Assembly: GCA_018267725.1 (NCBI GenBank)
Contig: JAFDXY010000031.1
Location: 23,778 to 87,777, forward strand
From: Bacteroidota bacterium
GTDB taxonomy: Bacteria; Bacteroidota; Bacteroidia; Chitinophagales; Chitinophagaceae
Direction: 5' to 3'
DNA: 64,000 nucleotides
Shown here: positions 6,055 to 60,414 of the stretch, piece by piece
Layout of the letters: each line of letters starts with the position of its first letter
Numbering within the stretch: the stretch's first letter is position 1
Made by a program: the position numbers and the translations under genes
The notes under the pieces: model-generated
What the model saw: the letters and a program-made list of their open reading frames with translations, nothing else
Told to the model about the DNA's origin: nothing
Databases searched by the model: none

Positions 6055-8271
6055 TTATATGTAAAACTGCTTTTTAAAACTTGCTATTTCTTTAGTGTAT
6101 TTTTTTAATACTTCTTTTTGTTGTTGAATAAAATTATTTTCTTGTAAAGAGCCTAATACTGTATTCATTTCTTCTTCAGAGCTATACATCATTTTTCTAA
6201 AAGCATTAGTATAATCTTTTTTGCGTGAGTTGAAAATATTTGTTGTAATTAATTGTTGTGTATCTAATGCTGCATCTAACAAATTGTTTAAAGCAGATTT
6301 ATCTATTTTCTTTAAATTAATTTTACTTATTTCAATTAAACTTGCCAATGCATGTTTTGTTTTTTGTTCTGCGTAATTTTTACCTTCTTTTAAATAATAT
6401 TCATGCACCGCATCCCAAGTATTTATTTTGCCCAATTTTATTTGCTGATTTAGTTTATTAACTGATTGTGTTGTAATTAATTGTCCGCCAACATTTAACC
6501 ATTCTTCTCTTAAAAGCTTTGCAGGAACAGCTTTTTGAAGTTGTTGAATAGATTTTATACTTTTTACTTTAATAAATTCTGTTAATTGCTGAATGCCATA
6601 AAATTGAATCATTCTAATAAAAAAATTATACGACTCTCTTACTTTTAATAACTGAACTTTTCTTTTACTGTTTTCAATTCCTTCTATAAAAATTTCTATT
6701 TCATCAATAGCTTTATCATTTTGTTGTAATAAATTTTTTCCTTTTTTTATTGCTAACTCTTTGCTTATGTTGGTTTGATTTTGTAATTGTAAAAATGCTT
6801 TACCAACTGCTTCTTCCATTAATGGTAACGATGCAAACATTTCATTAACCGTATCGGGTGCTAAATAGTTGTATTCAATTAATTGCGTTTTATTAGTTCT
6901 TTTATCTCTATCAATATATTTCCAACTGTTTCTTACCAATGCATACATATTATACATAAACCAATAGGCAGGCATAAGGGTTAAGTTATTATTAATTTCA
7001 TTAATACTAACTAATGAAAATGGAATAGTAATATTTAATTCATTTTGATAATCGCCTTTGGCTAAAATAGTAAAGCTTGCAAACTTTGAATTGTGTTTAA
7101 TGCTAACACATAAACCCGGCCAAAAGCCACGCCCCATAACGGCTTCTCCATCTGCACTGCGTGAATTATGGTTAGAACCTAATGTTGCACCAGCTGCTAC
7201 ATTGCTTTGCCCCATTAATAATGCTGCACATAAAAATGAGTTGTTGTGATGTTGCTCGTGTGCAGGAAATATTAATGAATTTAAAACTTCGCAACATGAA
7301 ATGGTTGCATTGTTGCCGAGGTATGAATTAATTAATCTTGCACCATATTTTAATTGCGAGTGCGATGCCATAATAAAACGAACAGCTTTTACACCATAAA
7401 ATATTTTGCAACCAAAATCTATAATACCATTTACTAATTCGCAACCTTCGCCAATTTGTGTTTTACCTTCTTCACCAGAGTTGATGGTAAGATTTTTCAT
7501 TTTGCTTGCACCTTTTATGTAAGCATCTTTTCCTACCCAAACATCTTTTATAATTGAACAATTTTTTATAACTGTTCTATCTCCAACTTTTCCGTAATAA
7601 CCTCTGTTATGATTAAATTTTTTTTCGGTTAGTTGTTTAAATTTTTCAAGTAGTGCATCATCATCTCTAAACTTGCTCCATAAAAAAGCATCGCCGGGTA
7701 ACATGCCATTAAAAGGAATTACTTTCCTCCCTGCATTTTCATTACATATTTCTAACCAAATTCTTACTTCTTCATCTTCACCTTCTTTCACAATACCGTT
7801 ACCAAATTTTGCATGGTTGGTAGTAACTAATTCATTTATATTAATTAAAATAACTTCATTGCCAACTATGTAATGACTCATATAGTTTACATTATCTACT
7901 ACAACATTATCGCCAAAATCGCAACTAATAATGGTTGAATTGTATAAACCAACCGGAACTTTTAAATCGCTAAACATTAAACAATACGGCTCTAATTTCC
8001 CTATACGAACCAATCCGTAAAACTTACAATTTTTTACTAATTCAGGATTGAATGCATTGCTTACTAAAATTTTATTCCAATCGCCACAAGTATTTCTGTT
8101 TCTTACCAATGCTTCAATTTCATAAGCCGTTAAATTTCTATATTCAATGCCACTGCGGTTTTGAAGGTTTCGTAAATAATATTCATTTTTTCCTTTAGGA
8201 ATATATTCTTCTTTTATAAAGCCATAACCTAAAGATGTAATGGTTGATTTGGTGATATTATTTTGCTGCAT
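6055..8271 (-). CDS. Large left-handed beta-helix (hexapeptide-like) protein, resembles the DUF4954 family
   Basis: 738 aa with a repetitive beta-helix-like central region (GDNVVVDNV, GKDAYIKG, IGEGCELVNGII) and a helical C-terminal third. The family assignment is from memory. Confidence 0.5.
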   Translation of the reverse strand: MQQNNITKSTITSLGYGFIKEEYIPKGKNEYYLRNLQNRSGIEYRNLTAYEIEALVRNRNTCGDWNKILVSNAFNPELVKNCKFYGLVRIGKLEPYCLMFSDLKVPVGLYNSTIISCDFGDNVVVDNVNYMSHYIVGNEVILININELVTTNHAKFGNGIVKEGEDEEVRIWLEICNENAGRKVIPFNGMLPGDAFLWSKFRDDDALLEKFKQLTEKKFNHNRGYYGKVGDRTVIKNCSIIKDVWVGKDAYIKGASKMKNLTINSGEEGKTQIGEGCELVNGIIDFGCKIFYGVKAVRFIMASHSQLKYGARLINSYLGNNATISCCEVLNSLIFPAHEQHHNNSFLCAALLMGQSNVAAGATLGSNHNSRSADGEAVMGRGFWPGLCVSIKHNSKFASFTILAKGDYQNELNITIPFSLVSINEINNNLTLMPAYWFMYNMYALVRNSWKYIDRDKRTNKTQLIEYNYLAPDTVNEMFASLPLMEEAVGKAFLQLQNQTNISKELAIKKGKNLLQQNDKAIDEIEIFIEGIENSKRKVQLLKVRESYNFFIRMIQFYGIQQLTEFIKVKSIKSIQQLQKAVPAKLLREEWLNVGGQLITTQSVNKLNQQIKLGKINTWDAVHEYYLKEGKNYAEQKTKHALASLIEISKINLKKIDKSALNNLLDAALDTQQLITTNIFNSRKKDYTNAFRKMMYSSEEEMNTVLGSLQENNFIQQQKEVLKKYTKEIASFKKQFYI

Positions 8272-20962: not shown

Positions 20963-21682
20963 TTAAGCGTTGTAGTTTGTAATATATCTTACCAAACTTC
21001 TTTTAGCAACAGGTAATAAAGTTTCTTCAATAGGAAAACTCATATTGGTTTCTACCGCATATACAGCAGGGTTGGGCATTTCACTTCTGTTTTTTAATAA
21101 TTCGCTTTTTATATTTTGGTAACTATTTACATAATTGTGTTGCCATACATCTATAAACTCTGTTTTAATACTTCTGTATTTGGCATCGTGTTTTTCAAAC
21201 ATACTTAACCTGTATTGATACACCCAAGTGTTTTTAGCTTTGCCTTCGCATAAAAAGAAATAACCTTCCTTATTTTCTAAAGGAATAATGCCAACGGGCT
21301 CAATATTTATTTTGTTTTCTACAAACTCATAAATTTCACTTCCGCTACTAATAGTTTCTTTCATGATAGTTGCAGAATAATTTATAATATCTTCTAATTC
21401 ACACATAAGATCGTCATCTTCAATCATACTTTCATATAAAATTTGTAATTGCTGTAACTGAATGCCTGTAAGCTTTTTAGGAAAATGTTCTTGCAAATAT
21501 TTTTTGTTTTCTTTAAATGCAATAATGTTGTTGTAATGAAAAATTACATCTGCCAATTGCGGATATAATTTGTTTTCGGTAAAATATTTATTTACTTCTT
21601 GCAGGTAGGCGAGGAGCGTGTATTTCTTTAATTCAAAATCTATATAACCATCTGCAAACCATGTTTGTGAAAGTGTTTTCAT
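20963..21682 (-). CDS. Conserved hypothetical protein
   Basis: 239-aa ORF with coding-like composition and no motif I recognise. Confidence 0.55.
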   Translation of the reverse strand: MKTLSQTWFADGYIDFELKKYTLLAYLQEVNKYFTENKLYPQLADVIFHYNNIIAFKENKKYLQEHFPKKLTGIQLQQLQILYESMIEDDDLMCELEDIINYSATIMKETISSGSEIYEFVENKINIEPVGIIPLENKEGYFFLCEGKAKNTWVYQYRLSMFEKHDAKYRSIKTEFIDVWQHNYVNSYQNIKSELLKNRSEMPNPAVYAVETNMSFPIEETLLPVAKRSLVRYITNYNA

Positions 21683-21942
21683 ATTCTGAATTTTAGTTGG
21701 ATGAATTTACTTGATAGATTGGTTTTAACATAGAGTTGTTTATTCACACTATGTTAAAATAATTAATAATGCAATAAAAAACGATGAATGTTTAGTAAGC
21801 AACTAAACTATAACTAAACTAAATGTTTGCACTATAAGTATTGTAATAATTTTAAATCATATACCTTTAAACGCAACAGTTTATTTGATGTTTACTAATT
21901 TCTCAGTTTATTAAAACGAATACATAAAAAATAATACACGCT

Positions 21943-22839
21943 ATGAAATATTTTTTTTTGTTATTAACTGGTATTTCTGTTTTTTCAGTATCAGCTCAAA
22001 GTGTAGATAAAAAATTGGAAGCATCTATTCAAAAAGAAATTTCAAATTTTCATGGAGATATTGGTATTTATGTTCATCATCTTAAAAAAAATAAAGTTGT
22101 TGCCATAAATGCAGATACTGTTTTTCCTACGGCAAGTTTAATTAAAGTGCCTATTCTTACAGGTGTTTTCAAAAAAATACACGATGGAGAATTAAAACTT
22201 TCTCAACCTTTTACTTATAATGCTAAAAGAGCTTACGGAGGCTCGGGTTTAATGCAATTTTATAAAGACAGTGCTATTACCGATTTATCTACAATGATTT
22301 CTTTAATGCTTACTTACAGCGATAATGTGGCTGCTATATGGTTGCAAGAATTAAGTGGCGGCGGAATAGTTATTAATAAGCTAATGGACTCTCTTGGTCT
22401 TGTTAATACAAAAGTTAATTCACGTACAGAAGGCCGACAAGAAATATGGAAAAAATATGGTTGGGGGCAAACTACACCAAAAGAATTAGCAACATTATTT
22501 ACTTTAATTCGTGAAGGAAAAATTATTGATGAACGTTATTCCGATAAAATGTATCGTTATCTAAAAAATCAATTTTATAATGGTCGTTCTTTATCTCAAT
22601 TACCACCCACTGTTAATACTATTTCAAAAACAGGTTCGGTAGATGAAGCTCGCGGAGAAGTGGTTTTAGTAAATGCCCCAAGTGGTGATTTTGTTTTTTG
22701 CATACTCACTAAAAATAATAAAGACAAAAGTTGGACTGATGCTAATGAAGCTGAAACACTTACACGAAAAATTGCTGCTTTAATTTGGAATTATTATGAA
22801 CCCAAACATTCTTTTAAAAATTATATACCAATTAATTAA
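21943..22839 (+). CDS. Class A beta-lactamase-family serine hydrolase (secreted)
   Basis: 298 aa with a signal peptide and the SxxK (ASLIK), SDN (YSDN) and KTG (KTGS) motifs. Confidence 0.8.
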   Translation: MKYFFLLLTGISVFSVSAQSVDKKLEASIQKEISNFHGDIGIYVHHLKKNKVVAINADTVFPTASLIKVPILTGVFKKIHDGELKLSQPFTYNAKRAYGGSGLMQFYKDSAITDLSTMISLMLTYSDNVAAIWLQELSGGGIVINKLMDSLGLVNTKVNSRTEGRQEIWKKYGWGQTTPKELATLFTLIREGKIIDERYSDKMYRYLKNQFYNGRSLSQLPPTVNTISKTGSVDEARGEVVLVNAPSGDFVFCILTKNNKDKSWTDANEAETLTRKIAALIWNYYEPKHSFKNYIPIN

Positions 22840-22916
22840 ATGTATGTAGTGAAAACAGTGAGAAACCCTTCGACCTGCTGTGTTTTGCACACGATTTGCC
22901 TTTTGTTTTTGAAAAT

Positions 22917-25112
22917 TTATTTTGGTTGAAAATCCTTATGCCCGGATTGCCACAATAAAAAGAATACCATTTTTAAAACCGTTCTCCATTTATCAATCAT
23001 TGTTTCAGCATTGGCATCTGCATTATGACCGCCTTCAAAAAAAGTATAGAGCAAAACAGGTTTGCCTGATGTACTGCTTGCTTGCAATGTAGCTGCCATC
23101 TTACCTGACATCCAGATTGGTACCCTCGGGTCATTCATGCCAGCTTGATAATAAACAGCAGGATATTTTGTATCAGGTTTCACATGAATTGTTGCATCCG
23201 CTTCTATCAACCCTTTCATTTCAGATTCTATATCAGGGTTTCCAAATTCAGGATAATTATAAATTAAATTTGCCCAGGCTTTACTTCTTATCAGATTTAC
23301 TGTACCTGATTGAATTGTAGCTGCTGCAAACAGATCGGGCCTTTCGGTAATTGCCCTGCCAATTAGAGTGCCACCGGCACTCCCTCCAAAGCAACTAAGT
23401 TTTGATGATTGTGTGTATTTGTTTTGTATAAGATATTCTGCACAAGCTATAAAGTCTTTCCAGCTATTAGGTTTGGTTTCCTTCATTCCCGCCCTATGCC
23501 ATGCTTCTCCTTTTTCTCCACCACCACGCACATAGGCATGAACCAATACAACACCACGCTGAACCAGAAGGTTATTAGAAATATTGAATTCATTGAAGTA
23601 ATTTTCCTTTCCAATAATTCCATAAGCTCCATAACCCCACAAAATGCAAACATTATTACCATCCAGCTTTGTATTTTTATTTCTCATAATACTCATTGGC
23701 ACAAGTGTGCCATCGTATGATGGTACTTCTATTAGTTCAGTCACAATATCATCACTGCCTTCAATAAAAGTTTGCCCGTGAGAAGCCCAGAAATCATCAT
23801 TGCTTAAAGTATTTTTCTCAACATTGAGTAATAACCCACTTTTAGGTTTGTTTACAGGCTCGTTATAAAATACACACTCATCGGTTTTCGTCCCCATTGT
23901 CCAAATGCTGTACCTGTCATAAGCTTTTATAGCAGATACATTAATTTTTTTTCCGGTTTTTTTGTCAATAAAAATTATTTTGTTGAGAAAACCATATTTG
24001 GAATAATTAACAAGAATGTATGATTTTGTTTCATCTATGTATTCCAATTGCCAAATACTGTCTTCAGGAAAAATAATTTTAGCATTAGCAAAGTCAGGAT
24101 TATTGTATGATGTATAACGAAGACTTTTAAAACCATTACCTTTTGCTGAAATAAAATAATAGCCATCATTGCTTTCTTTAAAATCATACACCGAGTCTGT
24201 TTTCGAATATAGTTTTTTCCATTGTTTGGCCGGGTTTAATAATTCAGTATTGCTAATGTAAAAGGCACTTTTATCAAGCCCAAAACCAGCATTGGGAATA
24301 CAGTACAATCTTTTTGAACTATTATTTGAATAAATATATGCACGATAAGTATTACTAACTTTCTTTTCAATTGTGTTTCTTATTTTGTCATCCATAATAA
24401 TTTTATCGGCAGTAAAACTTGTAAAAAGGGGATGATATTTTGTTACTTCATATTCTGAAGCATTAGAGGCATTGCGGTCGCCTGTATTATATTTGTAAAA
24501 GAAACCTTTGCTATTACTTGTCCAATTAATACTACCAGCCAAACAGTTTGGTATGCTATCTTTCAGCCATTTTTTATTTACAATATCATATGTTTTTACA
24601 AAAGGGTATTCTTCGCCGTTTTTATCAAATGATGCAAAAATATATTTTTCATCCGGAGAAAGACCTATGTCGTACAATTCATATCGCATACCAGAATGAA
24701 TGCTCCAGGTATCAAATATCAAATGCTCGGTTGTGTCATTTATTGCTTTGTAATATAGTTTTTGTGATAGTTGCCCACGCTTCGAAAGCATATAAAAGTA
24801 TCCAGATGCTGTTTTAAAATATGGTTCTCTTTTCCATGTTTTTGCATCTAAAAAATGCTGTATCTGACCAAGAAAACTATCCACTCCACCAAGTTTTTCC
24901 ATTTTTTTATCGGCAAATACTTTTTGTTCTTTTAGCCAGTTTAGTACTGTGCTGTCCTTTAAGTTTTCTAACCAACGGTATGGGTCTTTGTAAGTAACTC
25001 CAAAATAAGTGTCGCTGCTGTCAACTGTTTTGGTAGCTGGATAATTATTTTGAGCTTTAGAAGAAACACAAATCAATAGAAATAGAATGGTTTGTACAAC
25101 GTTTCGTTTCAT
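22917..25112 (-). CDS. Prolyl oligopeptidase (S9) family serine peptidase
   Basis: 731 aa with a signal peptide, a beta-propeller N-domain, the GGSAGG nucleophile elbow and a C-terminal Asp/His region (GMNDPRV, EGGHN). Confidence 0.85.
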   Translation of the reverse strand: MKRNVVQTILFLLICVSSKAQNNYPATKTVDSSDTYFGVTYKDPYRWLENLKDSTVLNWLKEQKVFADKKMEKLGGVDSFLGQIQHFLDAKTWKREPYFKTASGYFYMLSKRGQLSQKLYYKAINDTTEHLIFDTWSIHSGMRYELYDIGLSPDEKYIFASFDKNGEEYPFVKTYDIVNKKWLKDSIPNCLAGSINWTSNSKGFFYKYNTGDRNASNASEYEVTKYHPLFTSFTADKIIMDDKIRNTIEKKVSNTYRAYIYSNNSSKRLYCIPNAGFGLDKSAFYISNTELLNPAKQWKKLYSKTDSVYDFKESNDGYYFISAKGNGFKSLRYTSYNNPDFANAKIIFPEDSIWQLEYIDETKSYILVNYSKYGFLNKIIFIDKKTGKKINVSAIKAYDRYSIWTMGTKTDECVFYNEPVNKPKSGLLLNVEKNTLSNDDFWASHGQTFIEGSDDIVTELIEVPSYDGTLVPMSIMRNKNTKLDGNNVCILWGYGAYGIIGKENYFNEFNISNNLLVQRGVVLVHAYVRGGGEKGEAWHRAGMKETKPNSWKDFIACAEYLIQNKYTQSSKLSCFGGSAGGTLIGRAITERPDLFAAATIQSGTVNLIRSKAWANLIYNYPEFGNPDIESEMKGLIEADATIHVKPDTKYPAVYYQAGMNDPRVPIWMSGKMAATLQASSTSGKPVLLYTFFEGGHNADANAETMIDKWRTVLKMVFFLLWQSGHKDFQPK

Positions 25113-25215
25113 ATTTTTTTAAATTTTAGAGAGTGTTCAAGAGCATGGCAGGTAACGGTTTTAGCAATACCTTGTTGGCTGTAGTGCTTCGCTTCTCTAT
25201 CAATAAAATGACTTA

Positions 25216-25728
25216 TTATTTCTTTTCAGTTGTAAAAGCTGGTGGCGGCGGCGAATTTTTTGACCATGTTCCTTGCCAATTTTTATACTTCCAAACTCCG
25301 CTTTGCTTTACAAAAACTGCTGTGTACAATATTTCAGCAGCGTATTTTTCATTTGAAAAAGCCTGAACTCGTCCATTTATAATAGCAACATTGTCAAATA
25401 CTTTTATTTTTTGGTCGAAAAATTTAAACTTTAAAGATTCAAGCATTTTCAGCCGTGCGGTGTCAGCAAGCGTTTCTTCCATATTGGCAGTTACTCCGTC
25501 TGCGTCAATTGCAAAAAAATCGTCCGCAACATCGGTTTTCATGTAACTGGCAAGATTTGTCAAAGTAACGTTCTCCCACATTCTTTTAAAAGCACTATCA
25601 ACTTGTTGCTTTGAAATTTCTGTGTTATCAATTGCTGTGTTGTTTTTTACCTTCTCTGATTGTGAACAACCCACAAATAATAAGAAAGAAGTCAAAAAAA
25701 ATGTTGTCAGGCAAAAATTTTTTTTCAT
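25216..25728 (-). CDS. NTF2-like (DUF4440/SnoaL-like) lipoprotein
   Basis: 170 aa with a lipobox (LLFVGC). The family call comes from size and pattern only. Confidence 0.5.
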   Translation of the reverse strand: MKKNFCLTTFFLTSFLLFVGCSQSEKVKNNTAIDNTEISKQQVDSAFKRMWENVTLTNLASYMKTDVADDFFAIDADGVTANMEETLADTARLKMLESLKFKFFDQKIKVFDNVAIINGRVQAFSNEKYAAEILYTAVFVKQSGVWKYKNWQGTWSKNSPPPPAFTTEKK

Positions 25729-25821
25729 TTGTGTTTTGTATTTAGTGCCTACTCTATTCGGTTTTCGGCTTACCCCGTTTTAATTGTTAAGAGTTGATTG
25801 CAGTTTTGTCTGTCCGAATTA

Positions 25822-25913
25822 CAGTCAACTCAAAACTATGCAAAATTGTTTATCAGTAAAATGAAAACTTTCACCATTTAATAAAGCTACCAAAATGAAA
25901 AAGCCACCCCTTC
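25822..25913 (+). repeat. Left copy of the ~90-bp imperfect direct repeat bracketing the PIN-TM gene cassette
   Basis: CAGTCAACTCAAAACTATGCAAAATTGTTTATCAGTAAAATGAAAACTTTCACCATTTAATAAAGCTACCAAAATGAAAAAGCCACCCCTTC aligns with 28133-28223 in the same orientation. I counted about 10 substitutions and 2 one-nt indels by hand. Confidence 0.85.
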
Positions 25914-26143
25914 GCTTTGGAATGTGTCTTCACACACCAAGTATAAATTTTATAATTAATTTGATTGATATGTTTCGTGAGACACGAAACAGGGCAGAGT
26001 GGTGTTTTTGTAACACTAACAAATTATTTAATTATATAATGCCTCGTACGGACACAAGACAGGGCGGGGAAGATGCCATGTTGCTGATGTTGAGGTATAA
26101 AGCCCTACCCCAATAATGCCAAACTTAATGTTGGCTGCTGGGC

Positions 26144-28096
26144 TTACTTTTTCAATAACATAAAAATTGCTATTAAAAATGCTACTGTTGTCGAAATCCA
26201 CGCTGTCCTTGTAGACTTTTTATAAATTCCAAAAATTATTGTAATCAACATAAATTGAATTAACGCTTTAATAATTATGATGTTTGGAATAATTGGAATA
26301 GTGATAAATTTTTCAATAGTCCAAACAAAAGAAGAAACTAATGAAAGAACAATGACAACTATGCTATTTTTTAAAATTCTATTTTGTCTGATTAGGTTTT
26401 TGTCAATAGGATTTACAACTTCCACTATTTCCTTTTCAACTTTTTGGGTAGCTAAATTCTTTTCTTCTTTTTTATCTGCTTGTTGCTTTTGAATAACTAA
26501 TTCTAATTTGTCTAATACTTTTACCAATTTATCAGTCATTTCTTTCTCTTCTTGCCTACCTCGTTCTGCATATGATTTAACTTCAGAGATGAAATGACTC
26601 GAATTTGAAGTTGCAATTTTGTTTAAGACTTCTGGGTTTACAATACGTTTCTTTGCAATCATACTTGCAATCATTACTGTATCATCAGCTGAAATATTAC
26701 TTTCACCGTAAGTATTGAAGTTTTCATCAAGCTCTCTTAATACTTTTGGATTAGGAAGTGAATAAGAAATTGTTGATGATACAAGTCTTGTCAAACCAAG
26801 AGAACTAATTTCTGAACTGTTTAAAAATTGTGTTACGTTAGGATTGCTTAACCATAAAAAGTTTAGCAATTCTTCTGCTCTAATTATTTCAGGAAGATTT
26901 TCAGCTGCATTTGGGGTTTTTATATTAAATGGTGTGTTAGTTACAAACCAGCAATTAGCTTTCATAATATCTCCACCTTTTTGTTGAGTGCCACCACGTT
27001 TTTCTCTTACATAAGCTATAGCAGTTGTGTCGTGTAATGCACTAAAATTATAATTGCCACGAATGTTTTGGTAAAACTCTAATACAGACGAATATTGATA
27101 TTTGGCAAGGGTTCTAAATTTTGTATCATTTGCTACTTTGTAAATTTTATATTCTTTCTCTAAAACATCTTCCAAACTATTAGAGATTCGAAATAATTGG
27201 GTTTTAGATAGATTGCGTCTTTTAGAAGCATTATAAATACTTTCTGGGTCTAAATAACCTTGGAAAAATGCTGTTTCAATTTGATTAGCTTTTCTTTCGA
27301 TTAGCATTTGTGTTTCTTCAATGGTGAAAGGTAAAACTGATTTTGAAAAACCAAGCTTGTCGCAAATCTCAATTATTTTCCTACAAGTATGAGTTGACTC
27401 TGATGAGTTTAAATCAAGAATTCCTAGTATGAAATTAGTATCAATAAGTATTTCAATTTTATTATTTGTTTCCCCAATTTCAACTTCTAAATATGCAGCA
27501 ATTAGTGAACCTAAATAAATTCTTCTTAAAGTGTTATAAATTCTTTTATTAATCTTCACAGAGTTAATAAAGTTAGCTTGATGGACAAACTCAACTTCTA
27601 ATTGCTTGTTCTCTTGGTATGCAAAAAAACGAGAGAGATTAATTCTATTTTGATCAATATACTCAAATATTGAAACTTCTTTATTGATTTCAACTCTGAT
27701 TGAATTCAAATATGTATGGTAAAGTCTTTCAATTTCTTGTATTTCACTTTCTTTTTCTTCAAGTTCATTTTCGTAGTCGGCAAATAAAAAATCATTCATT
27801 AAAAAGGAATTGTCCTTGTGTAAAATGAATTGATTCTCTAAATTTTTTTCTACTTCATTTGAAATTTTAAAAAGTAATTTTTTAAGAATTGGAATTGGGA
27901 TGTCTAATGCAAAAGTGTTATCAATTTGGTTCTTAATTTCAATGATAGTTTGTCCACTCTTTACCCCATTTTGATTAAGTCTGCAAAGTGAAGATTTTAC
28001 AATTGGTATAAAAATGTCGTCAAAATTTTTAATGCCAATATTATTGTCATTAATATGAGCTAATAAACTAAATGCAGCTACTTTTTTATTATTCAT
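26144..28096 (-). CDS. Uncharacterised 650-aa protein: unknown N-domain + PIN-like nuclease signature + coiled coil + three C-terminal TM helices
   Basis: Candidate PIN-like acidic residues are KIEILIDTNFILG (D219), FTIEET (E260/261), ALHDTTAIA (D356) and CWFVTNT. A charged helical stretch spans aa ~505-565. Hydrophobic helices lie at aa ~575-595, 598-625 and 632-648. The gene looks AT-richer than its neighbours in spot counts. Confidence 0.6.
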   Translation of the reverse strand: MNNKKVAAFSLLAHINDNNIGIKNFDDIFIPIVKSSLCRLNQNGVKSGQTIIEIKNQIDNTFALDIPIPILKKLLFKISNEVEKNLENQFILHKDNSFLMNDFLFADYENELEEKESEIQEIERLYHTYLNSIRVEINKEVSIFEYIDQNRINLSRFFAYQENKQLEVEFVHQANFINSVKINKRIYNTLRRIYLGSLIAAYLEVEIGETNNKIEILIDTNFILGILDLNSSESTHTCRKIIEICDKLGFSKSVLPFTIEETQMLIERKANQIETAFFQGYLDPESIYNASKRRNLSKTQLFRISNSLEDVLEKEYKIYKVANDTKFRTLAKYQYSSVLEFYQNIRGNYNFSALHDTTAIAYVREKRGGTQQKGGDIMKANCWFVTNTPFNIKTPNAAENLPEIIRAEELLNFLWLSNPNVTQFLNSSEISSLGLTRLVSSTISYSLPNPKVLRELDENFNTYGESNISADDTVMIASMIAKKRIVNPEVLNKIATSNSSHFISEVKSYAERGRQEEKEMTDKLVKVLDKLELVIQKQQADKKEEKNLATQKVEKEIVEVVNPIDKNLIRQNRILKNSIVVIVLSLVSSFVWTIEKFITIPIIPNIIIIKALIQFMLITIIFGIYKKSTRTAWISTTVAFLIAIFMLLKK

Positions 28097-28132
28097 TAAT
28101 CTTTTTAAAAATTGTGGGTTCTCATAGCCTTG

Positions 28133-28223
28133 CAGCTAACTCAAAAATATGCGAAATTATTTATCAGTAAAATGAAAGCTTTCACCATTTAATAAAACTG
28201 CCAAAATTAAAAGCCACCCTTCC
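28133..28223 (+). repeat. Right copy of the ~90-bp imperfect direct repeat
   Basis: See 25822-25913. This copy contains the terminator hairpin of the E2 gene. Confidence 0.85.
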
Positions 28224-28233
28224 AGAGTGGCTT
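28203..28233 (-). terminator. Rho-independent terminator of the E2 acyltransferase gene
   Basis: On the minus strand, AAGCCAC / GTGGCTT form a 7-bp stem with a 9-nt loop (28211-28233), followed by TTAATTTT. Confidence 0.55.
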
Positions 28234-28259
28234 TAGCTATTTTTATATATTACAAAATA

Positions 28260-29999
28260 TTAATCTACATATTGTTCTTGTACAACCAATTTTAATTCTC
28301 TGTTTACATTCCAGTTTTCAAATTCTTTGGCAACTTCTGTTAAAAAACTTGCACCAACACTGCCATCAATAATTCTATGGTCGTAGCTTAAAGATAAATA
28401 CATCATGTGGCGTATGCCAATAAAATCTCCTTTCTCTGTTTCTAAAACAACAGGGCGTTTTTTTATGGCACCAACGGCTAATATGGCAACTTGTGGTTGA
28501 TTAATGATTGGTGTGCCCATTAAACTTCCAAATGAGCCAACATTGGTTAATGTAAAGGTACCGCCTTGTGTGTCATCTGGTTTTAATTTTCCGTTGCGTG
28601 CATTGGCTGCCAAAGCATTTACAGATTTTGCCAAATTAACTAAACCCATTTGCTCTGCATTTTTAATTACAGGAACAATAAGATTATTATTAGGCAAAGC
28701 TGTTGCCATTCCTATATTAAAATAATTTTTTATAAGAATTTTATCTCCTTCAACAGAACTGTTAATAATAGGAAAACGTTTCATAACTTTTATTAAACAC
28801 TCAATAAACATTGGTGTAAAAGTTATTTTAGTTCCCGTACGTTTTTCAAAATCTTCTTTCTTTTTTTCACGCCATAAAACCATATTGGTTACATCGGCTT
28901 CTGCAAAACTTGTTACATGGGCACTGGTTTGTTTGCTGTTTACCATGTGCTGTGCAATTAGTTTACGCATTCTATCCATCTCAATAATTTCAACACTTGG
29001 TTTAGGTGCTTCTATAATTGGTGGAGCAACATAAACAGGCTCTGGTTGTGGCTGCGGTTGAACTACAATGGGTTCAGGTACAGGAGCTATATAAACAGGT
29101 TGTGGTTGTTGAAACTCAACTTGTATTGGTTGTTGCTGTTGCTGAATAGGTTGCGGTTGTGGTGCAACTGTTTGTGTTTGAATTTGTGGAACAACATAAA
29201 CAGGTTCAGGCTGCGGTTGAACAGCAATTGGTTCTGGTATTGAAACAATAACAGGCTCTTGCTGAACAGGTGCTGCTTGTGCAATAATTGTTGGCGGTGG
29301 AGGCTCAGGAGCAATAACTTGTTCTTGATGTGTAAAAGTTTCTATAACCGGAACTGCGGGTGGTATTGGTTGTGCTGCAACAGGTTGTTGATAAACAGGT
29401 TGCGGTGCAACAAATGCAGCTACTTTTCCTGCTTTTTTATCGGCTATATATTGTAGAATATCTCTTTTAGAAACTCTTCCATCTGCTCCGGTTCCCGGAA
29501 TTCTTTCTAACTCACTTAAACTTAAACCTTCACTATTGGCAATATTTAAAACCAATGGAGAAAAGAATTTATTATTTCCTCCTACTGAAGTATTTGCTGA
29601 AGGAACATAAGTTGGTTGTGGTGTAAAAGGTACTTGTTCGGGTTGTGGTGCAACAACAGGTTGCTGTATAGGTTGTACGGGTGGCGGATTATAAACGGGC
29701 TGTTGTGGTGTAGCAGGTTGAACGGGTGGTGGCGGTGTTGTAGGAACAAAGGTTGCACTTACGGCTTCAATTTTTGCTATTACTGCACCAACGGGTACTA
29801 CATCATTTTCTTTAAATAAAATTTCTGTAATAACACCATTAGCGGTAGAGGGTACTTCGCTATCAACCTTGTCTGTAGCAATGTCTAAAACAGTTTCATC
29901 AAGCTTAACGGTATCGCCAACTTTTTTATGCCAACGCAGTACTGTGGCTTCCATTATGCTTTCGCCCATTTTAGGCATCACCAAATCTACTATTGCCAT
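28260..29999 (-). CDS. 2-oxoacid dehydrogenase complex dihydrolipoamide acyltransferase (E2) with very long Pro/Gln-rich linkers
   Basis: 579 aa with a lipoyl domain (DIATDKVDSEVPS), a subunit-binding domain (SPLVLNIANSEGLSLSELERIPGTGADGRVSKRDI) and a catalytic domain (SYDHRIIDG). Confidence 0.93.
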   Translation of the reverse strand: MAIVDLVMPKMGESIMEATVLRWHKKVGDTVKLDETVLDIATDKVDSEVPSTANGVITEILFKENDVVPVGAVIAKIEAVSATFVPTTPPPPVQPATPQQPVYNPPPVQPIQQPVVAPQPEQVPFTPQPTYVPSANTSVGGNNKFFSPLVLNIANSEGLSLSELERIPGTGADGRVSKRDILQYIADKKAGKVAAFVAPQPVYQQPVAAQPIPPAVPVIETFTHQEQVIAPEPPPPTIIAQAAPVQQEPVIVSIPEPIAVQPQPEPVYVVPQIQTQTVAPQPQPIQQQQQPIQVEFQQPQPVYIAPVPEPIVVQPQPQPEPVYVAPPIIEAPKPSVEIIEMDRMRKLIAQHMVNSKQTSAHVTSFAEADVTNMVLWREKKKEDFEKRTGTKITFTPMFIECLIKVMKRFPIINSSVEGDKILIKNYFNIGMATALPNNNLIVPVIKNAEQMGLVNLAKSVNALAANARNGKLKPDDTQGGTFTLTNVGSFGSLMGTPIINQPQVAILAVGAIKKRPVVLETEKGDFIGIRHMMYLSLSYDHRIIDGSVGASFLTEVAKEFENWNVNRELKLVVQEQYVD

Positions 30000-59888: not shown

Positions 59889-60188
59889 TTATTTCCGAAG
59901 CTTATACCATTCGGGCTTTCTTTTAAAATGGCTAAATGCTATTACAGAAATTGTATAAGTACTGGGCTCTATAACATATACTATTTCATAAGGAAATATT
60001 GTTAGCGATGCTGCTCTTAACTCGTTAGTAATTTTTGTTGTGTAAAAAGGGTTGAGAATTATTTTATTGGCAGTGTTATCAAAATCTTCAATCAATTTAA
60101 ATCCTAAACCAACGTTTTTTTCTTCATACCAAATAAATGCTTCGTCTAAATCAATCTGGGCAAAGTGTTGTATAATAAGTTTATACAT
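59889..60188 (-). CDS. Type II toxin-antitoxin system RelE/ParE-family toxin
   Basis: 99 aa. The N-terminal pattern (AQIDLDEAFIWYEEK...GLGFKLIEDF) is typical of ParE-like toxins. It sits 13 nt downstream of a small antitoxin-like ORF. Confidence 0.7.
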   Translation of the reverse strand: MYKLIIQHFAQIDLDEAFIWYEEKNVGLGFKLIEDFDNTANKIILNPFYTTKITNELRAASLTIFPYEIVYVIEPSTYTISVIAFSHFKRKPEWYKLRK

Positions 60189-60201
60189 TAAGGGAAGTTT
60201 A

Positions 60202-60414
60202 TTAGGGAAGATATTTTTTTCTTAACTCTTCCCATTCAACTCCTTCAGTAGGGTTTGTTTTATAGTATGCTAACCTTTCTTTGTATAAATCTGCTTTCCA
60301 TTTAGGAAGGTTGTTATTTTCAGGATGTAATGCAATACTTTCCATTAAGTCGGCTATAATTTCTTTTTTATCTTGCTCTGGTAATGCTATCAGTTCTTTT
60401 ATATTATAACTCAT
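60202..60414 (-). CDS. Putative addiction-module antitoxin component
   Basis: 70 aa with the pattern LPEQDKKEII..L..S.......LP.W......RL..Y......GV.WEEL, recalled from the addiction-module-component family. Confidence 0.65.
   Translation of the reverse strand: MSYNIKELIALPEQDKKEIIADLMESIALHPENNNLPKWKADLYKERLAYYKTNPTEGVEWEELRKKYLP

Follow-up and report, generated by a model that had tools for sequence, protein, structure and literature searches.

The stretch of DNA analyzed here (the window) comprises 64,000 nucleotides (nt) of contig JAFDXY010000031.1 from a member of the Chitinophagaceae (Bacteroidota; assembly GCA_018267725.1), and our subject is a single minus-strand gene of 650 amino acids (aa) within it, which we call the PIN-TM gene for its PIN-like domain and its C-terminal hydrophobic, putatively transmembrane, helices. 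The gene lies between the gene for the E2 acyltransferase and a DUF4440-like gene, followed by a non-coding tail and bracketed by two direct repeats (Table 1): 25819-25901 and 28130-28212 align without gaps over 83 nt at 88% identity and a spacing of 2311, and the core of the repeat is identical at 68 of 75 positions (91%) between the left and right copies. A 37-nt pattern built on this core occurs exactly twice in the 64 kb (0.00 expected from shuffled sequence; no shuffle gave any match). A preliminary description of this DNA, made from the sequence alone, had already reported same-orientation repeats of about 90 nt around a single 650-aa open reading frame (ORF) with a 230-nt non-coding tail, as well as a terminator hairpin in each copy, the left one being the weaker, and all of these features were found again (6 pairs in the left hairpin vs. 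11 in the right).

The 3′ arm of the E2 terminator hairpin (28210-28234) forms the start of the right repeat copy, and both copies contain a TAnnTTTG box (28142-28149 and 25831-25838, read from the sequence) which we take to be the Bacteroidetes -7 promoter element. Because each copy begins with a terminator-like hairpin and holds such a box, the repeat of about 90 nt looks like a duplicated module of terminator tail plus promoter, set before two consecutive minus-strand genes; it would provide the cassette gene and the DUF4440 gene behind it each with a promoter of its own. The same terminator hairpin also stands 3′ of E2 in the closest relative that we found (locus L025, accession BFBZ01000014.1; E2 79% identical in the best segment and 97% identical in the catalytic domain), but this terminator is all that L025 shares with the window here: the promoter part of the repeat is absent, and the repeat therefore belongs to the inserted material and not, as had been proposed, to a native spacer (terminator plus promoter) that was duplicated on insertion.

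Table 1. Coordinates of the PIN-TM cassette, the domains it encodes and the surrounding hotspot in the window (position 1 is the first letter of the window).
Feature	Position	Strand	Basis and remarks
E2 (2-oxoacid dehydrogenase acyltransferase), conserved upstream flank	28260..29999	-	Pfam 2-oxoacid_dh E=2.6e-79, Biotin_lipoyl, E3_binding
E2 intrinsic terminator hairpin AAAGCCACTCTGGAAGGGTGGCTTT plus T-run	28210..28234	-	terminator scan, 11 pairs
Right (upstream) repeat copy, ~90 nt	28130..28219	-	-7 box TATTTTTG at 28142-28149; end = GAGTTAGCTGCAA
Allele-specific segment (33-nt leader, 650-aa ORF, 6 nt past the stop)	26138..28129	-	blastn of L009 against the window
650-aa ORF (PIN-TM)	26144..28096	-	N-terminal domain, PIN-like nuclease, helical region, coiled coil, three hydrophobic helices
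N-terminal domain, aa 1-205	27482..28096	-	fold family not recognized; helices and a small beta-hairpin; no Pfam or PDB match
PIN-like domain, aa 214-416, with large helical insert	26849..27457	-	invariant residues, AlphaFold2 (AF2) model, Foldseek
Charged coiled-coil stalk, aa 499-572	26381..26602	-	within one predicted helix, aa 499-597 (AF2); 40% charged residues
Three hydrophobic helices, aa 574-648 (type A module)	26153..26377	-	hydropathy
Non-coding tail, 230 nt, between stop codon and left repeat	25914..26143	-	~96% shared by both alleles
Weaker terminator-like hairpin, 3′ of the cassette gene, start of left repeat copy	25905..25924	-	6 pairs
Left (downstream) repeat copy	25819..25909	-	-7 box TAGTTTTG at 25831-25838; end = GAGTTGACTGTAA
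DUF805b-like cis-regulatory RNA motif in the DUF4440 leader	25746..25778	-	Rfam RF02914, 32.1 bits (gathering score 35.6), E=2.1e-6, full-length model match
DUF4440/SnoaL-like gene	25216..25728	-	Pfam DUF4440 E=2.5e-5, 25.1 bits, just under the 25.2-bit cut-off
S9 prolyl-oligopeptidase gene	22917..25112	-	Pfam; presence/absence polymorphism within the population
Class-A-type beta-lactamase-family gene, hotspot cargo	21943..22839	+	Pfam Beta-lactamase2 E=1.7e-48
239-aa gene, downstream core flank	20963..21682	-	no Pfam match; directly after E2 in many relatives; 88% identical in L025

Exact-protein look-ups traced the arrangement of the window to many activated-sludge assemblies, and among these the PIN-TM gene proved to be accessory: a PLD-family nuclease gene can occupy exactly its position as an alternative allele. 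The PLD allele was recovered on a contig (L009) from the same sample, ERZ937806, as a contig carrying the 650-aa gene, and L009 reads, in order, the 3′ end of E2, the repeat, a 245-aa PLD gene, the same tail, a second repeat, an identical DUF4440 protein and the start of the S9 peptidase gene. By blastn, its first 256 nt (E2 end and repeat) are 96.1% identical to window positions 28385-28130 and positions 1040-2194 (tail, repeat, DUF4440 and S9 start) are 98.5% identical to window positions 26137-24982, while the 783 nt in the middle have no match to the window and encode the PLD-family protein (PLDc_2, E=5e-7; PADLOC DrmC models, E=3.6e-9; phrog_9329, E=6.5e-52). Another contig (L008) carries the PLD allele without the S9 peptidase gene, which is replaced between the same flanking sequences by a single 77-nt unit of the tail (L008:1576-1749; 97% identical to window 25923-25999). 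A first metagenome scan for the repeat core gave 0 matches in a collection that did not contain this species, hence the exact empty site (E2, one repeat, DUF4440) was not found.

The order S13 (minus strand), CinA, E2, 239-aa gene is conserved in the loci of about 80 relatives, and in many of them no more than about 80-250 nt separates E2 from the 239-aa gene (L047, L073, L074, L076, L083, L085, L088, L095 and others); tblastn found none of the PIN-TM, DUF4440, S9 peptidase and beta-lactamase genes in these loci. Since E2 and the 239-aa gene are either adjacent in relatives or separated by other cargo, everything from 21683 to 28259 is accessory cargo of a hotspot with a core gene on either side. 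In L025 the slot holds a two-gene Dazbog system (L025:8415-10888; DzbA E=8e-36, DzbB E=2.4e-14), around which no long direct repeats were found; a pair of different hairpins resembling repetitive extragenic palindromic (REP) elements lies at the 3′ end of this insert (L025:10977-11062). Rather than a gene held at this position by conserved synteny in all relatives, with no empty sites, the comparison thus revealed an alternative allele, a Dazbog system in L025 and many relatives in which the two core genes adjoin. The earlier proposal that the cassette had simply been dropped into the E2-DUF4440 spacer does not describe the ancestral state: the DUF4440 gene is itself cargo, and the core gene that bounds the hotspot downstream is the 239-aa gene (20963-21682).

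Base composition, in contrast to the low-GC anomaly that had been suspected, does not set the PIN-TM gene apart. The window as a whole has 31.2% GC and the gene 28.1%, and its GC at third codon positions (GC3), 19.5%, falls inside the 17-26% of neighboring genes that are syntenic in relatives, so that compositional foreignness was rejected. The line of high GC used for comparison in the preliminary description is probably explained by a stretch of the E2 gene, 29016-29406, lying between the lipoyl/E3-binding and catalytic domains, with imperfect direct repeats of 27-48 nt and about 40-43% GC. As a separate observation, the GC3 of the DUF4440, S9 peptidase and 239-aa genes and of the PLD allele (L009:292-1029) is 26-30%, vs. 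14-22% in the surrounding genes; that of the PIN-TM gene is not raised.

Exchange of the alleles is most simply explained by homologous recombination via flanks that are 96-98.5% identical. There is, however, a second pattern at the locus: the PIN-TM, PLD and DUF4440 ORFs are each bracketed by inverted repeats of 14-16 nt (GTTRGCTGYA... / ...TRCAGCCAAC), located at 28131-28146/26129-26143 (PIN-TM), L009:243-258/1035-1050 (PLD) and 25820-25835/25173-25188 (DUF4440), with 12/15, 14/15 and 11/14 matches, respectively. The tail begins with CAGCCAAC, the inverse of the GTTRGCTG at the end of the repeat, and the DUF4440 gene has the same 5′ repeat module and is then followed by CTACAGCCAAC (25173-25183). 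At positions 9-16 of the inverted repeats each cassette matches its own partner (5, 6 and 4 of 8) better than the partners of the other cassettes (1-4 of 8). The cores, GTTAGCT, GTTGGCT and GTTGACT vs. AGCCAAC, have 6/7 matches to each integron consensus (GTTRRRY, RYYYAAC), the pattern GTTRRCTGYA occurs four times against 1.0 expected, with three of the four at this locus, and the allele boundaries are sharp and fall exactly at the inverted repeats. These observations would fit a dedicated site-specific or transposition mechanism acting on the short inverted repeats around each ORF, either integron-like or in the manner of a non-autonomous element mobilized in trans. The resemblance to integron cassettes extends to single, promoter-proximal ORFs in one orientation, each between a GTTRRRY-like core and its inverse, and to a cassette start complementary to its own 3′ core.

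We nevertheless consider such a mechanism rather improbable. As had been noted previously, the 64 kb lack any integrase or transposase, and no recombinase was found either among the called, Pfam-annotated genes; there is no target-site duplication beside the inverted repeats; the three examples all come from one locus; and the near-identical flanks suffice for homologous exchange. An integron attC model for the tail plus repeat was also tried and rejected: folded as single-stranded DNA, this 336-nt segment (25815-26150) is not attC-like (z=-1.24), and the cores are unpaired in the minimum-energy structure. The locus thus differs from integron cassettes in the lack of an attC hairpin and of IntI, in an array of at most 2-3 genes, in the deviating cores (GTTRGCT / AGCCAAC) and in having promoters of its own.

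The tail holds two REP-like units of the form GCCCTGT plus hairpin (motifs at 26051-26065 and 25981-25995, the second unit spanning 25923-25999; 2 matches in a motif search vs. 0.13 expected), and its hairpins, of the form GCCCTGTTTYGTG-NCN-CACGAAAC (window 25923-26065, minus strand), are REP-like elements. Two other identities for the tail were rejected: as a structured RNA family it gave no Rfam match at E<=1, its hairpins proving to be REP-like, and its only sizeable ORF, of 73 aa and antisense, is frameshifted in the other allele, so that a small gene or antitoxin is not encoded there. A REP-like 24-mer of the tail forms tandem arrays in a metagenome-assembled genome (MAG) of Ferruginibacter sp. 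(JAHBTO010000016.1; L016:1448-1471 and 6727-6750, L017:1857-2111) and, among all loci fetched, occurs only there and at the hotspot; in the window's own genome, of which about 100 kb was examined, it is absent from about 40 kb of flanking sequence (L105, L106). This distribution, arrayed in the one genome and absent from the flanks of the other, hints at a Ferruginibacter-like donor, of which the REP-like elements of the tail may be the signature. The same MAG also contains an insert of about 75 nt with REP-like hairpins between direct duplications of 107 nt (91% identical; L016:1295-1401 and 1475-1581), in which the duplication copies the junction of two genes, leaving the end of the first and the start of the second intact, the same geometry as that of the repeat of about 90 nt in the window.

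The PIN-TM protein has no match above threshold in Pfam, NCBIfam, PHROG or the sequences of the PDB, and its central domain is accepted here as a predicted PIN-like fold with a large helical insert, an assignment made at the level of structure and motif and not of a family threshold. Five residues (D219, T258, E261, H355 and D356) are invariant in 53/53 aligned homologues, with D219 following beta-1 and E261 following beta-2 of the domain in the predicted structure. The full-length AlphaFold model (mean pLDDT 77; 84-96 over most of the PIN region) has a single helix at aa 499-597 followed by the hydrophobic helices; its best match among PDB structures is 1w8i (prob 0.98), which is listed as a PIN-like structure by Matelska et al. 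(PMC5499597), and its best viral match (BFVD) is annotated as “PIN like domain” (prob 1.00). With a model of the domain only (aa 205-420; pLDDT 85.6, pTM 0.86), 8 of the first 9 PDB matches in Foldseek are PIN proteins (PcrIIC1, PAE2754 in two chains, AF1683, PAE0151, VapC2 in two chains and VapC20; prob 0.63-0.99, TM-score relative to the target 0.40-0.64, E 0.02-0.3). Pfam PIN itself aligns to aa 216-274 at E=0.17 (12.9 bits, not reaching the cut-off of 23.6 bits), and 11 of the 53 relatives have matches to PIN_3 or PIN (best 4.8e-4 and 0.021, respectively). Profiles of the PIN domain and of the N-terminal domain were also run against PDB sequences: the former found no PIN protein and the latter nothing useful. 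The acidic pattern from which a PIN-like domain had originally been proposed (D219, E261, D356) is borne out by its invariance, and the remaining architecture also agrees with the preliminary description: the N-terminal domain is recognized by neither Pfam nor the PDB, the charged coiled coil placed at aa ~505-565 lies at aa 499-572 (40% charged) inside the predicted helix, and the three C-terminal hydrophobic helices appear in the hydropathy profile at aa ~574-648, with no such segment before aa 560.

Relatives of the protein are numerous (at least 178 proteins in one search; 390 clusters at 50% identity and E<=0.001 among 1.84 billion representatives in a second). The full-length ones are mostly from Bacteroidota (Flavobacterium, Saprospiraceae, Bacteroidales, Larkinella, Sunxiuqinia), plus one Ignavibacterium sequence; the family was absent from the viral contigs scanned and from PHROGs. 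The N-terminal domain and the PIN domain are common to all 220 full-length relatives checked, and a profile search with the N-terminal domain for other architectures returned only short or partial proteins. On this constant core the C-terminal membrane module varies, with no fewer than three unrelated types: type C in 78 of the 220, type B in 61 and type A in 32, with 49 unclassified. The window protein belongs to type A, in which a first transmembrane helix (TM1) is followed by WTIE (family motif WWTF[ED]), TM2, K..R.AWI and TM3.

In type B, which accounts for 61/220, or about 28%, of the full-length family representatives (P0033, P0037, P0046, P0055, P0069 and others), the N-terminal and PIN core is joined, on the evidence of profile comparisons, to a true pore domain of the calcium uniporter (MCU). 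Against MCU structures the type B profile scores E=6.7e-14, in a match that takes in TM1, the W-D/N/S-x-x-E-P loop, TM2 and the coiled coil after it; individual members carry WDIMEP, WNIMEP or WDTIEP, and 11 of the 53 aligned relatives pass a Pfam MCU scan (best E=1.5e-14). The likeness to MCU (PF04678) is confined to these 61 members, which share the order coiled coil, TM1, W[DNS]xxEP, TM2, coiled coil; the bacterial versions differ in being fused to a nuclease and in that S or N often takes the place of the first acidic residue in the DxxE filter. An MCU-like nature of the window's own module was considered and rejected: hhalign gives a probability of 0.5% for type A against type B, and type A has no match in the PDB or to Pfam MCU. 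The window protein, with a three-helix module unrelated to type B or to any solved structure, is thus not an MCU homologue. Our literature searches turned up no account of what bacterial MCU homologues do, and nothing relevant on PIN-TM proteins or MCU in phage defense.

Such an exchange of C-terminal modules while the rest stays constant is the usual pattern of defense effectors, and it raises the possibility that the membrane module is the killing effector, a pore that opens and depolarizes the cell (as in an MCU-like ion leak), with the PIN-like domain as a nucleic-acid sensor or regulator. The literal WDIMEP and related W-[DNS]-x-x-E-P motifs of the type B relatives would fit this. The invariance of D219, E261 and D356 in every aligned member, however, argues for a catalytically active PIN domain, and the window's own module, without MCU similarity, offers nothing that points to pore formation; we regard the pore as effector as possible, if unlikely. 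The two activities, PIN nuclease and membrane pore, could also coexist in one protein.

Six genomic contexts of homologues were examined (P0014, P0025, P0053, P0106, P0033 and P0055), a small sample without statistical control, and four of the six are defense islands, in keeping with what had been anticipated for homologues of the gene. P0014 has AbiE, DUF1156/DUF499-HEPN, WYL, a CD-NTase with STING, and YobI as neighbors; the island of P0106 also holds an integrase, WapI, GmrSD and RnlAB; and two (P0025, with McrB and AbiJ nearby, and P0053, with AbiE and a PLD/SNF2 pair nearby) are located between hsdR and hsdM-hsdS of type I restriction-modification (R-M) systems, with gaps of 2-8 nt or abutting genes. 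For genes located within type I R-M operons, an enrichment in defense functions is supported by experiment (bioRxiv 10.1101/2024.01.29.577857). No partner or neighboring gene is conserved across the six contexts, so that the family protein is a single-gene unit; this, together with the PLD allele, agrees with the single-gene accessory cassette originally described.

From this genomic context we infer a function in defense, and the 650-aa gene is, in our judgment, probably a single-protein anti-phage defense candidate of the abortive-infection type, a membrane-held PIN-family nuclease in a strain-variable hotspot. In such a system the PIN nuclease would be held at the inner face of the cytoplasmic membrane by its long stalk, and the protein might oligomerize via the coiled-coil stalk of about 100 residues and the transmembrane helices. 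It would presumably stay inactive until infection is sensed, either by the N-terminal domain or through a disturbance at the membrane, whereupon the activated PIN domain would cleave RNA in the manner of VapC and growth of the infected cell would stop. In Zorya (ZorAB) and Kiwa (KwaA), too, a long helical or coiled-coil element connects a membrane module with a nuclease acting in the cytoplasm, as predicted for the window protein, and sensing of phage-induced envelope events is plausible; the window protein differs from them in being a single polypeptide with no MotAB-like or DUF4868 components, and no homology to them was detected, though the comparison was not put to a test.

Several observations weigh against a nuclease of this kind and against a role in defense. 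Every PIN E-value is sub-threshold (Pfam E=0.17, Foldseek E=0.02-1), though the Foldseek probabilities reach 0.9-0.99 and the top matches are consistently PIN, and the usual fourth acidic position of PIN domains, 387, is N in 42 and D in 6 of the 53 aligned sequences. The only match of the protein in PADLOC-DB v2.0.0 is to HEC-02A (E=0.0018) over the coiled coil (aa 494-568), which we regard as compositional noise since HEC-02A is an ABC ATPase (bioRxiv 10.1101/2024.01.29.577857) and the match lies on the coiled coil; PADLOC, like Pfam and NCBIfam, thus gives no credible match to a named system, as had been stated from the start. The slot is not reserved for defense, for it contains a response regulator and an RRM protein in two more distant relatives (L101, L104). 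This copy of the gene, moreover, sits among housekeeping genes and not in a large defense island, beside DUF4440, S9 peptidase and beta-lactamase-family genes that are not defense-like, and two homologues (P0033 and P0055, both MCU-type) lie among uncharacterized small genes in contexts that are not recognizably defense islands.

These last points would also suit a gene without any immune role: a membrane-associated nuclease for RNA processing or quality control (compare the membrane-anchored RNases), or one with some other niche function, that is accessory by chance. PIN proteins with transmembrane helices of unknown function have indeed been catalogued already, for example PIN.COG4956 (PMC5499597). 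Against this stand the strain-level variation at the locus, the replacement of the gene by a PLD nuclease and the presence of Dazbog in the same slot of the closest relative found, the four defense islands among the six contexts with two homologues operonic with type I R-M genes, and the small size of the family (390 clusters at 50% identity in the 1.84 billion representatives), and we consider the non-immune explanation quite improbable.

The closest structural relatives of the PIN domain are the VapC toxins, and the gene is a self-contained unit bracketed by a terminator and a promoter, so one might suppose that it is the toxin of an addiction (toxin-antitoxin-like) module which mainly stabilizes the accessory segment and does not protect against phage. 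We find this very hard to credit: neither leader nor tail holds a conserved ORF of antitoxin size (the sole candidate being the one frameshifted in the other allele), no neighbor is conserved among the six homologue contexts, and a protein of 650 aa with several domains is far from the VapC-type toxins of about 130 aa.

The candidate membrane-held defense nuclease, with its invariant acidic residues, shares its predicted PIN fold with the VapC-type PIN RNases, with DS-3 and DS-5 of DefensePredictor (PMC13092281) and with HEC-03B (bioRxiv 10.1101/2024.01.29.577857), and with DS-3 also the form of a one-protein unit without antitoxin. It differs from the VapC-type and other PIN defense proteins in its large helical insert, in the lack of a sequence match above any family threshold, and in a 205-aa domain of unknown kind and a membrane tether (a helix of about 100 residues and 2-3 transmembrane helices); HEC-03 has an ABC ATPase partner and VapBC an antitoxin, and the window protein has neither. 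The latent nucleases PrrC and RloC offer another parallel, in that two homologues, with 58% and 39% identity to the window protein, are encoded in one operon with hsdR and hsdM-hsdS and between them, a position which suggests a back-up nuclease triggered when restriction fails. Unlike PrrC and RloC, the window protein is membrane-anchored, has neither an ABC ATPase nor an anticodon-nuclease domain, and is encoded without adjacent R-M genes. As for the locus, defense hotspots flanked by core genes are well established (PMC10250203, PMC10121019), and the slot resembles cDHS1/2 of Pseudomonas aeruginosa and the E. coli hotspots described there in its conserved core flanks and variable cargo (here PIN-TM, PLD, Dazbog or nothing). 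It differs in being very small (1-4 genes), in lacking mobile-element genes, in including non-defense cargo, and in that its cassette genes carry a duplicated promoter module of about 90 nt and short inverted repeats.

We found no paper that describes the protein family, which has no name in Pfam, NCBIfam or PADLOC v2, and the best reading is that it is an undescribed variant among nuclease-based single-gene defenses and core-flanked hotspots, with the PIN-MCU relatives adding to the newness of the architecture. If confirmed, the one-gene phage defenses would gain a family spread across Bacteroidota, with at least 390 clusters at 50% identity and an undescribed combination of unrecognized N-terminal domain, PIN nuclease, long stalk and exchangeable membrane module. 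Its association with type I R-M operons points to a possible back-up role like that of PrrC, which is directly testable. Through the PIN-MCU fusions the role of bacterial MCU homologues can be approached concretely. A much more far-reaching synthesis, which we put forward as speculative and do not ourselves expect to hold in full, would see a class of membrane-coupled immune nucleases in which one N-terminal plus PIN core for sensing and cleavage is combined with interchangeable membrane modules, one of them the MCU pore, and, separately, an undescribed form of mobility that uses ORF-flanking inverted repeats, duplications of about 90-107 nt and REP-like hairpins. Were it true, bacterial MCU homologues would act in abortive infection, and the pore of the eukaryotic mitochondrial uniporter would have relatives, or its origin, in prokaryotic immunity. 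The locus itself offers a clear natural case of alleles being swapped at a defense hotspot that is very small and has no mobility genes, and is useful for studying hotspot turnover in uncultured activated-sludge bacteria.

Two minor features of the window may be added. The DUF805b-like motif in the leader of the DUF4440 gene sits downstream of the putative promoter of the left repeat. Far from the hotspot, at about 59889-60414 on the minus strand (coordinates converted from the gene calls of L106), a 70-aa gene of the Unstab_antitox (Phd-like) kind precedes a 99-aa gene of unknown function, the two being probably a small toxin-antitoxin pair among housekeeping genes.

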